IMG/VR virus record: IMGVR_UViG_2526164632_000028 | Strand: one strand, 5' to 3' | Length of the DNA stretch: 15,265 nt | Source of the DNA: a virus | Lineage: Duplodnaviria; Heunggongvirae; Uroviricota; Caudoviricetes | Shown: one piece after another, positions 5,781-7,330 of the stretch | Position numbering within the stretch: position 1 is the first letter of the stretch | Layout of the letters: each line of letters begins with the position of its first letter | The notes under the pieces: model-generated | What the model saw: only the letters and a program-made list of their open reading frames with translations | What the model was told of the DNA's origin: nothing | Database searches by the model: none | Made by a program: the position numbers and the translations under genes

Positions 5781-5865
5781 GGTAACTCGAAGTATTTCCC
5801 TGCGTTCTGTGGGGCGGGGTGGGTTGGTATGTTGTTAAGGTAACAAGAGTTACCTTTCGAGTCAA
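5781..5865 (-). promoter_or_regulatory. putative leftward early promoter (pL-like) with repressor operator(s)
   Basis: Palindrome GGTAACaagaGTTACC at 5839-5854 and half-site GGTAAC at 5781-5786. On the minus strand, -35 TTGACT (5865-5860), 17-nt spacer, -10 TACCTT (5842-5837), with the operator overlapping spacer and -10. Same half-site as the two sites next to the repressor gene. Confidence 0.45.
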
Positions 5866-5927: not shown

Positions 5928-6602
5928 TCAGTCTAAGTATTGATGTATTTGTGAAACTTTACCTTTAATGGTGTAACCACCATTCAGTTCGATGGGTTTG
6001 TAAAGCGGATTCAGTGACAACAAATAGATGTTTGGTCCGTCAATCGCAACTTTTTTTAGTGTTACGTTTGGCGTTCCTTCCAATTGGATTAAGATTATTT
6101 TTCCCACCAGTTCTCTAATGTTACTTGAGCATGGTGTGATCAGCACGGTAGATCCGTCGGGGATGGTTGGGAGGCCGTTAGAGTTTGTCATCGCATCTCC
6201 CTCAACATGCAATAAAAAAGAGTTTTCAGCGGTTTTTGTCATGACATCAACCCAGTTATTAATACCAGGAATCTTGGTTACTGGACAACTCATATCCCAA
6301 TAACCAGCCTGTTCCCACGTTAAAACGGGCAACCGGGCGATGTTGTCACTAATGTAAGGGTACTGATTCAGACGCAGATCATCGGTTTTATCGTGACAGT
6401 CCTTTCCATAAAGAATCCATTCAGGAGATTTGGAAAGCAATTTTGACAGTAGATACAAATTCTCACCGTCAGGTTTTGAAGAGCCATTTTCCCATTTTGT
6501 TACGGATACACGAGATATGCCGATTGCTTTCGCAACCTGCTGTTGGGTTAATCCAACGTCTTTTCGACGATTCCGAATACGTTCGCTGATAGTGTTTTTC
6601 AT
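5928..6602 (-). CDS. cI: prophage repressor, P22 C2 / lambda cI type (N-terminal XRE-type HTH, C-terminal S24 LexA-like domain) with Ala at the catalytic Ser position
   Basis: Start taken at ATG 6602 (MKNTISERIRNRRKDVGLTQQQVAKAIGISRVSVTKWENG..., P22 C2-like N-terminus). The tabulated ORF to 6701 begins with TTG and has no RBS. C-terminal domain aligns to the lambda cI S24 region (VEGDAMT vs VEGNSMT; VTLKKV vs FTFKKL). Ala-Gly (QAGY) is present in the linker. Confidence 0.85.
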   Translation of the reverse strand: MKNTISERIRNRRKDVGLTQQQVAKAIGISRVSVTKWENGSSKPDGENLYLLSKLLSKSPEWILYGKDCHDKTDDLRLNQYPYISDNIARLPVLTWEQAGYWDMSCPVTKIPGINNWVDVMTKTAENSFLLHVEGDAMTNSNGLPTIPDGSTVLITPCSSNIRELVGKIILIQLEGTPNVTLKKVAIDGPNIYLLSLNPLYKPIELNGGYTIKGKVSQIHQYLD

Positions 6603-6667
6603 GTAACCAATGTTACTACCAAGTGATGTTGCTATGGTTGACATTGTTATGTAACTATTGTTACCCT
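6603..6667. promoter_or_regulatory. immunity-region operators and divergent promoters (OR/pR/pRM-like)
   Basis: Two palindromes GTAAC-N4-GTTAC at 6603-6616 (abutting the cI start) and 6651-6664. Rightward -35 TTGACA at 6638-6643 with -10 TACCCT near 6662-6667 overlapping the second operator. A leaderless leftward cI transcript with -10 TAACAT (6615-6610) is possible. Confidence 0.45.
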
Positions 6668-6693
6668 TCTGCTCGAAATAACAGGAGAGTTTT

Positions 6694-6908
6694 ATGTTCA
6701 AAGATGATGTTCTGCGCTATTTCAAAAAAAGCGACTAGTAGCTGAGGCTCTTGGAATTTCACATGTGGCTGTTGTGCGGTGGAAAGCAGTTATTCCCAAA
6801 CTTCGCGCAATGGAACTGGATGAAATTACTAACGGTGAATTGAAATACAACCCAGAACTTTACAAGAAGCAGGATAGCACCTCGAACGAAGGAAAGAATG
6901 ATTCATGA
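6694..6908 (+). pseudogene. cro: cro/dicC-like HTH regulator interrupted by a frameshift at an A7 tract
   Basis: ATG 6694 with SD AGGAGAG; reading frame MFKDDVLRYFKKSD stops at 6736-6738. The -1 frame continues (KK)RLVAEALGISHVAVVRWKAVIPKLRAMELDEITNGELKYNPELYKKQDSTSNEGKNDS to TGA at 6906-6908, which overlaps the next gene ATG (ATGA). One extra A in the A7 run (6724-6730) restores a 72-aa Cro/DicC-like protein. Confidence 0.55.
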
Positions 6909-7330
6909 AAATCAAGCATGAACACATCCGCATGGCGATGAATGTCTGGGCGCATCCGGACGGCGAAAAAGTACCGGCTGCGAAAATTACCAAAGCGTAT
7001 TTCGAGCTGGGAATGACGTTCCCGGAACTGTATGACGACAGCCATCCGGAAGCCCTGGCCCGTAATACCCAGAAAATTTTCCGTTGGCTGGATAAAGACA
7101 CCCCTGATGCTGTTGAAAAAATGCAGGCTCTGTTACCGGCGATCGAAAAGGCGATGCCGCCTTTGCTGGTGGCCCGTATGCGCAGCCACAGTTCTGAATA
7201 TTACCGTGAGATCGTCGAACGGAGGGATCGGCTGGTGAAGGATGTCGATGATTTTGTTGCGTCAGCGGTTGTTTTGTATGACCAGATGAATCGCGGCGGC
7301 CCGGCAGGGAATGCTGTGGTGATGCACTAA
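6905..7330 (+). CDS. CII-like / YdaT-family early regulatory protein (putative)
   Basis: 141-aa ORF MKIKHEHIRMAMNVWAHPDGEKVPAAKITKAYFELGMTFPELYDD... in the lambda cII position between cro and the replication genes. N-terminus resembles Rac YdaT as I recall it (unverified). Confidence 0.55.
   Translation: MKIKHEHIRMAMNVWAHPDGEKVPAAKITKAYFELGMTFPELYDDSHPEALARNTQKIFRWLDKDTPDAVEKMQALLPAIEKAMPPLLVARMRSHSSEYYREIVERRDRLVKDVDDFVASAVVLYDQMNRGGPAGNAVVMH

Follow-up and report, generated by a model that had tools for sequence, protein, structure and literature searches.

Can a lambdoid prophage be held by a repressor that keeps the architecture of a self-cleaving peptidase but has lost the residue that does the cleaving? 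The question is raised by a 15,265-nt stretch of DNA from a virus of the Caudoviricetes (IMG/VR record IMGVR_UViG_2526164632_000028), which we call the window. It encodes an immunity repressor of the S24 type, related to lambda cI, in which an alanine (Ala151) stands where the catalytic serine is expected. We consider this protein to be a natural non-cleavable ('ind-') repressor that uncouples its prophage from SOS self-cleavage, a reading to which we assign a probability of about 0.72.

An alanine at the catalytic position

The repressor open reading frame lies at 5928-6701 on the minus strand and encodes 257 amino acids when counted from a TTG start at 6701. PGAP names identical Escherichia coli copies 'LexA family protein' (WP_000103685.1) and begins them at the ATG at 6644; residue numbers throughout refer to the resulting 238-residue protein (Table 1). 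Both domains expected of such a repressor are recognized by Pfam, the helix-turn-helix (HTH) domain HTH_3 with 62.4 bits and Peptidase_S24 with 59.9 bits (cutoff 23.3). Positions 6192-6194 read CGC on the plus strand and hence GCG, alanine, on the minus strand, within the motif H-V-E-G-D-A-M-T-N-S; this direct reading agrees with the initial annotation, which had placed a GCG codon there in the context VEGDAMT.

Three kinds of comparison locate this alanine at the nucleophile position. In a phmmer search against solved structures, the top match was the full-length lambda repressor (3bdn), and the alignment pairs GDAM with GNSM (Ser149), TLKKV with TFKKL (Lys192), and EQAG with VQAG (Ala111-Gly112). 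When a 23-sequence family profile was compared by hhalign with LexA and UmuD, Ala151 fell on LexA Ser119 and UmuD Ser60, and Lys197 fell on LexA Lys156 and UmuD Lys97. An AlphaFold2 model of the repressor (mean predicted local distance difference test score, pLDDT, 77.5) gave lambda cI as its top Foldseek match and also matched LexA and UmuD structures. The matches include serine-to-alanine mutants of LexA that were trapped in the uncleaved state (PDB 1jhh, 6a2s, and 8s7g, the last with RecA).

The protein thus has the S24 fold, the general-base lysine, and the Ala-Gly scissile bond, and lacks the serine nucleophile of the G-[DNEM]-S-M motif. That an S24-type repressor carries alanine at this position, as had been proposed from the letters alone, is borne out by Pfam, phmmer, hhalign, and Foldseek; the accompanying claim of a conserved lysine (TLKKV) and a linker Ala-Gly holds in the 3bdn alignment and, for the lysine, in hhalign as well. 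The profile alignment against LexA and UmuD that had been suggested as a check was run, and no alignment puts a serine at the nucleophile position. An alignment artefact was considered and rejected, as pairwise, profile-profile, and structural comparisons concur.

Distribution and origin of the allele

The repressor gene is present in 702 of 5,426 complete E. coli genomes. To count alleles we used a 55-nt megablast query centered on the variable first base of the codon, such that every 28-nt seed must span that base. The GCG allele was recovered from 683 of the 5,426 genomes (about 13%, or approximately one in eight), and TCG in the same flanks from none. Full-length copies in IMG/VR are divided similarly, 85 with GCG and one with TCA, and all copies that we read directly have GCG (YDC107, O111:H2 12A, JJ1886, O111:H8 2009C-3675, a deer isolate, and CH4793). 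Carriers include the pandemic sequence type 131 (ST131) clone, represented by JJ1886 and EC958, as well as strains of enteropathogenic (EPEC) and Shiga toxin-producing E. coli (STEC). The change is not a lesion of this one prophage; it is a fixed allele under purifying selection (see below) in about 13% of complete E. coli genomes.

An E. coli sister allele, 87% identical and found for example in O178:H19, has GDSM with a TCA codon, and its clade occurs in only eight genome records. The Ser and Ala sister alleles are seldom found in one genome (at most two places per genome, median one). Among the homologues, two E. coli alleles, 97% and 88% identical, have alanine encoded by GCG, and a Salmonella allele that is 68% identical has it encoded by GCA. 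Serine is found in alleles at 86% (TCA) and 65% (TCG) and in all more distant relatives except a copy from Arsenophonus nasoniae. Relatives from other species of the Enterobacterales (Yersinia, Buttiauxella, Kluyvera, Edwardsiella, Erwinia, and others) have G-[DE]-S-M in 20 of 20 cases. The E. coli Ala allele at 88% identity (P0002-type) is absent from the complete E. coli genome set.

This distribution indicates that serine is the ancestral state at codon 151. One nonsynonymous base, TCN to GCN, suffices for the change, as had been proposed, and relatives carry TCA or TCG. In the identity matrix the four E. coli alleles group together, to the exclusion of the Ala allele from Salmonella and the Ser allele at 65%; accordingly, the codon must have changed at least twice, by two losses of serine or by one loss and a reversal. 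Amino-acid and codon parsimony are tied between these two histories, all four codons (TCA, TCG, GCA, and GCG) being observed.

The Arsenophonus homologue (P0020), from an insect symbiont, has the decayed motif P-D-D-K-T (PVPDDKTDN) and no Ala-Gly, while its Lys-Lys remains; it is probably a degenerating copy.

Selection on the C-terminal domain

Across 91 copies of the Ala clade (26 distinct alleles), the polymorphic sites of the C-terminal domain number 16 synonymous and 4 nonsynonymous; of the latter, two are singletons and none falls at Ala113-Gly114 or Lys197, which are invariant in all 91 copies. When the window is compared with the Ala allele of 88% identity, the same domain shows a synonymous divergence (dS) of 0.75 and a ratio of nonsynonymous to synonymous divergence (dN/dS) of 0.06. 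Because the polymorphism inside the Ala clade is mostly synonymous, the domain is constrained and working rather than decaying; these substitution patterns indicate that it stayed under strong purifying selection after the serine was lost.

A probable natural non-cleavable repressor

The effect of this substitution on a related protein is known. LexA S119A undergoes no self-cleavage, whether base- or RecA-mediated (PMC4980697), and the general statement of the initial annotation, that substituting this serine abolishes RecA-stimulated self-cleavage, is thereby established for the change to alanine in LexA. By analogy with LexA S119A and with engineered non-cleavable cI, we infer that cleavage has been lost here too; it is a sound inference from these counterparts that the repressor would not be inducible by RecA-stimulated self-cleavage, and prophages with the Ala repressor are probably blind to the classical SOS trigger. 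Related cases have been described in other prophages: Shiga toxin (Stx) is not produced by a 933W lysogen whose CI is non-cleavable (PMC8951638), mitomycin C fails to induce lambdoid prophages of strain Sakai whose repressors have no peptidase domain (PMC2669165), and a non-inducible prophage abolishes the ciprofloxacin hypersensitivity of lysogens (PMC13320796).

In the mechanism that we propose, the repressor would be the CI-type immunity regulator of a family of lambdoid E. coli prophages, acting in a module with its operators, cro, and a ydaT/cII analogue. Lacking the nucleophile, it would not undergo RecA*-stimulated self-cleavage and would retain operator binding and dimerization; by comparison with lambda cI, its S24-fold domain probably serves dimerization and cooperativity only. 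DNA damage would then leave the repressor undestroyed, uncoupling the prophage from SOS at the level of the repressor, and any entry into the lytic cycle would have to proceed through spontaneous cI/Cro switching or through factors acting in trans. The allele may spread because its lysogens avoid SOS-triggered lysis.

Several points weigh against this interpretation. The Ala-Gly and the lysine are still intact, although a purely structural role does not need them, and the protein may still have a function connected with cleavage, such as being a substrate in trans. A search of full-text literature returned no account of the Ala allele, no biochemical data on the protein, and no induction data on these prophages. 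The sample of complete genomes over-represents ST131 and STEC/EPEC clones, so that 683:8 overstates the excess of Ala over Ser alleles. There could be a small unannotated antirepressor, or one encoded by another prophage. Lastly, the allele is found at four integration sites with different integrases and replication modules, which shows that the module moves and that the phages are not simply locked. The 'locked prophage' of the initial annotation is for this reason not favored as a general reading: the four attachment sites and different integrases are accompanied by at least one complete late region.

A possible other route to SOS induction

The repressor could be non-cleavable and the prophage still SOS-inducible, by way of a LexA-controlled antirepressor that comes from a co-resident prophage or from an unrecognized small gene, as in Gifsy-1/-3, coliphage 186, and N15. 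Trans-acting antirepressors do act on non-cognate repressors (PMC3121763), and the CB repressor of N15, which consists of an HTH domain and a degenerate, non-proteolytic S24 domain, is subject to antirepression (PMC10432266). The E. coli carriers are usually polylysogens: places matching the whole window number two per genome in the median and as many as 13.

The initial annotation had raised an alternative induction route, and we looked for one in cis. There is no exact LexA box (CTGT-N8-ACAG) in the window, where one-mismatch matches are at chance level. In the 50-kb locus with the complete prophage of strain 12A, the sole exact CTGT-N8-ACAG lies inside the tape-measure gene with a GC-rich spacer, again at chance level. 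PGAP annotates no antirepressor in the 12A prophage, and none of the ten early-region window proteins that were scanned has a PHROGs match to one. Prophages of the antirepressor-controlled class combine the lack of a functional self-cleavage apparatus with a LexA-controlled antirepressor; the Ala repressor, its nucleophile absent, shares the former, and the latter was not found in cis. In addition, if induction depended on another prophage, that dependence would need to persist in widely differing host backgrounds. We regard this route as unlikely.

A possible role in engaging RecA*

The retention of Ala-Gly and lysine could have a different cause, namely that the repressor still engages RecA*. 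It might be a substrate cleaved in trans by a partner, a Ser-bearing S24 protein, or it might be an uncleavable RecA* binder that damps the SOS induction of co-resident prophages and so protects a polylysogenic host. Kim and Little (1993) reportedly observed intermolecular cleavage by C-terminal fragments of LexA and cI, which counts for the first of these versions; such trans-cleavage as has been reported is specific to the cognate protein, which counts against it, and the rarity with which Ser and Ala sister alleles co-occur in one genome (see above) speaks against it as well.

Binding does not require the serine, as S-to-A LexA still binds RecA filaments (PDB 8s7g). The Ala-Gly and lysine that are invariant in the 91 Ala-clade copies are also present in the 68%-identical Salmonella Ala allele, and elsewhere in the family lineages without the serine are usually without Ala-Gly too, which is kept in 2 of 19 of them versus 66 of 101 Ser-bearing representatives (Fisher p = 1.5e-5). 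However, amino-acid divergence within the Ala clades is only about 5-20%, so that the retention of three residues is statistically uninformative and is as expected of a recent loss. Either role, if true, would help explain why Ala outnumbers the Ser sister allele by roughly 85 to 1 in sequenced E. coli, but we consider a role of this kind improbable.

Decay and sequencing error

The alanine could instead be a sign that the repressor is decaying in a prophage remnant that is defective and domesticated, the domain being free of selection. Signs of decay are present in this group: cro is frameshifted in the window, some carriers have frameshifted integrases, and the repressor itself is frameshifted in one IMG/VR contig. 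Moreover, INPHARED (50,697 phage genomes) contains no free-phage relative by DNA, and the closest repressor protein there, of either the Ala or the Ser type, is 43% identical; apparently, this immunity group has never been isolated as free phage. These signs are opposed by the strong purifying selection on the C-terminal domain within the Ala clade and by the 86 of 87 full-length IMG/VR repressor copies that are intact. Likewise, cro is intact, with a run of eight A, in all nine further loci checked outside the window and in 84 of the 85 IMG/VR copies whose run was located, and the prophage of O111:H2 12A has complete packaging, head, tail, and lysis sets with intact int and xis. The decaying-remnant reading is largely refuted by the polymorphism pattern, and we hold it to be very improbable. 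The chance that the alanine stems from faulty sequencing or assembly, or is a mutation private to this genome, is negligible, and the allele counts led us to reject it: 683 complete genomes, each assembled independently, and 85 IMG/VR contigs have the same codon, and no complete E. coli genome has TCG in the same flanks.

The contig with the frameshifted repressor (L100, IMGVR_UViG_2609460218_000016) has a gene of 719 nt instead of 717 and is the sole defective copy among the 87.

Comparison with known repressors

The closest well-known counterparts are the repressors of MEROPS family S24, lambda cI, P22 C2, and 434 cI. They share with the Ala repressor the combination of HTH_3 and Peptidase_S24, the linker Ala-Gly, and the general-base lysine, and their genes likewise stand beside a divergent cro, a cII analogue, and repeated palindromic operators, which are predicted in our case. 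The difference is the alanine in place of the nucleophilic serine, by which, judging from its engineered counterparts, the self-cleavage chemistry would be missing here. In this respect the Ala repressor corresponds to engineered LexA S119A and not to the wild-type autoproteolytic repressors. The same substitution at the same structural position is found in LexA S119A, in Mycobacterium tuberculosis LexA S160A, and in Pseudomonas aeruginosa LexA S125A; non-cleavable 933W CI is likened to the Ala repressor by its non-cleavability only. Whereas the engineered mutants are laboratory constructs, the substitution in the Ala repressor is natural, fixed, and widespread, and arose or was reverted at least two times.

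Phage N15 offers a natural parallel. Its CB repressor also has an HTH_3 domain and an S24-like C-terminal domain without the catalytic serine, and it was shown experimentally to be uncleaved on SOS induction (PMC10432266). CB is more degenerate, with G-N-Q-I for G-D-S-M, glutamine for the lysine, and no Ala-Gly, whereas only one catalytic residue is changed in the Ala repressor. N15 also carries an annotated antirepressor gene, while no antirepressor was found in cis by the PHROGs scan of the window or in the annotation of the 12A prophage, and neither has a LexA box above chance.

The HTH-only lambdoid repressors (GfoR/GtgR of the Gifsy phages, DicA, RacR, PaaR2, and those of Sakai Sp6, Sp9, and Sp10) are also immunity repressors that are not self-cleaved, and their prophages are not directly induced via repressor proteolysis (PMC3121763, PMC2669165, PMC8630535). 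They occur in the same type of neighborhood, with ydaS/ydaT, dicB, and ydfABC. In contrast to the Ala repressor, which retains a full and constrained S24-fold domain, they are about 135-150 amino acids long and have no C-terminal domain. The Ala repressor joins this known class of non-proteolytic prophage repressors and is not a new kind of system. Within the class it is at the earliest possible stage of degeneration, with one catalytic residue gone and all else intact.

In the wider family, represented by 120 clusters (50% identity) of full-length HTH-S24 relatives from which the query's own subfamily was excluded (P0024-P0172), the serine is missing at the nucleophile column in 19 representatives (about 16%), with alanine or threonine as the commonest replacements; errors in the multiple alignment may affect a few of the distant sequences in this count. 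These Ser-less representatives are usually without the cleavage site too, and 'pseudo-peptidase' repressors may provide a common way to SOS-independent lysogeny that has been under-appreciated.

Significance for E. coli lysogens

When DNA-damaging agents, fluoroquinolones among them, induce prophages, lysogens are killed and the genes carried by the phages are spread; an uncleavable repressor removes this link. If the prophages with the Ala repressor are truly SOS-blind, the labels 'LexA family protein' and 'S24 family peptidase' given by annotation pipelines overstate the activity of the repressor, and it would be wrong to predict that antibiotics trigger the induction of these prophages. The prophages of EPEC and STEC carriers bear genes for type III effectors (EspW and NleG). 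The natural Ser and Ala sister alleles also constitute a ready experiment on host-level selection for non-inducible prophages in clinically important E. coli.

The immunity module and its prophages

As the left arm of a lambdoid prophage, the window encodes an integrase and an excisionase, an 823-residue exonuclease, dicB, ydfC, ydfB, and a gene of the DUF1391 (domain of unknown function) family, followed further along by the repressor, the divergent cro, the ydaT/cII analogue, O-like and DnaC-like replication genes, and a nin-type region. The features of a lambdoid immunity module are present: a divergent cro-like gene, a downstream cII analogue, and palindromes on both sides of the repressor gene (Table 1).

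Table 1. Coordinates of the repressor gene, its domains and key residues, and neighboring features in the window
Feature	Position	Strand	Basis or remarks
Immunity repressor gene, cI type	5928..6644	-	238 aa (amino acids) from the PGAP ATG start at 6644; stop codon 5928-5930
HTH_3 region	6414..6578	-	Pfam HTH_3, 4.1e-17; phmmer match to P22 C2 residues 6-67, 1.5e-12
C-terminal Peptidase_S24-fold domain, residues 106-230	5955..6329	-	PF00717, model positions 1-115 of 116; Foldseek matches to lambda cI and LexA C-terminal domains
Codon 151, GCG (Ala), nucleophile position	6192..6194	-	Aligned to lambda cI Ser149, LexA Ser119, UmuD Ser60
Ala113-Gly114 (GCT GGT), intact	6303..6308	-	Aligned to the lambda cI Ala111-Gly112 self-cleavage bond
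Lys197 (AAA), intact	6054..6056	-	Aligned to the general-base Lys: lambda cI Lys192, LexA Lys156, UmuD Lys97
Hairpin and U-run right after the repressor stop codon	5898..5925	-	RNA fold -16.7 kcal/mol, z = -4.2
Operator-like palindrome GTAACCAATGTTAC, right-operator region, inside the annotated first 14 codons, abutting the Met15 ATG	6603..6616	.	GTAAC-N4-GTTAC; direct-repeat family D1
Second operator-like palindrome GTAACTATTGTTAC, between repressor and cro	6651..6664	.	Palindrome scan and direct repeats
Third operator-like palindrome GTAACAAGAGTTAC, presumed left-operator/early-left promoter region, downstream of the repressor gene	5840..5853	.	Palindrome scan
Divergent cro (YdaS/P22_Cro-like), frameshifted here	6694..6909	+	Starts 50 bp from the repressor start; stops after 14 codons
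YdaT-family gene, CII analogue	6905..7330	+	PHROG 163 'CII-like transcriptional activator', 3.2e-47; PGAP 'toxin YdaT family protein'

The 14-bp pattern GTAAC-N4-GTTAC has four matches with at most one mismatch, three of them exact, against 0.25 expected, and four were reached in 0 of 200 shuffles; the three palindromes that flank the repressor gene are likely operators on this pattern evidence. The apparent conservation of 'NIGYM' at the protein level across relatives is operator DNA, GTAACATTGGTTAC followed by ATG. Because the annotated first 14 codons overlap an operator palindrome and are disordered in the AlphaFold2 model (residues 1-15), the biological start of the repressor may be Met15 (ATG 6600-6602), and its transcript could be leaderless, as that of lambda cI is. 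At the other end of the gene, its fold and position suggest that the hairpin is likely the intrinsic terminator of the repressor gene; a consensus terminator scan of the same region did not list it.

The frameshift in cro arises in a poly-A run at 6724-6730, which has seven A in the window versus eight in three aligned copies, and the gene is annotated as intact in five loci (L001 and L012-L015). Either the homopolymer was sequenced wrongly, or the site is prone to slippage and the defect is real and would cripple the lytic growth of this copy. The seven-A state is also found in one independent IMG/VR contig (L061) that is 98.9% identical over the immunity region. With regard to the cII analogue, YdaT acts in this capacity in CP-933P (PMC8630535).

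The Ala allele occupies different prophages. In addition to the site at potC, which in O111:H2 12A (L012) is occupied by a prophage of about 47 kb containing a 99.7%-identical copy of the window, it is found at ompW (ST131 JJ1886 and EC958), at yccA, and at a tRNA-Ser gene next to mtfA. The copies compared across sites have 97.8-100% nucleotide identity, while the prophages at the four sites differ in their integrases, replication genes, and Q antiterminators; such near-identical alleles in differing prophages show that the immunity module is mobile in the lambdoid pool.

The 2013 draft gene table of EC958 jumps from a truncated exonuclease (EC958_1533) to ydaV (EC958_1535), and the immunity region of the ompW prophage of the complete genome (L144) is missing from it. 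The sole S24 repressor listed in the TraDIS (sequencing of the sites of transposon insertion) table of EC958 (PMC3789825), EC958_1344, belongs to a different prophage, and the published transposon essentiality data consequently do not cover the Ala repressor.

In the 12A prophage the genes for terminase, portal, capsid, tail, and lysis are complete. Its far end (L012 1-3600) encodes EspW, NleG fragments, a DUF1076 gene, and an IS2 element; given these effector genes, the Ala repressor would control an effector-carrying prophage in EPEC.

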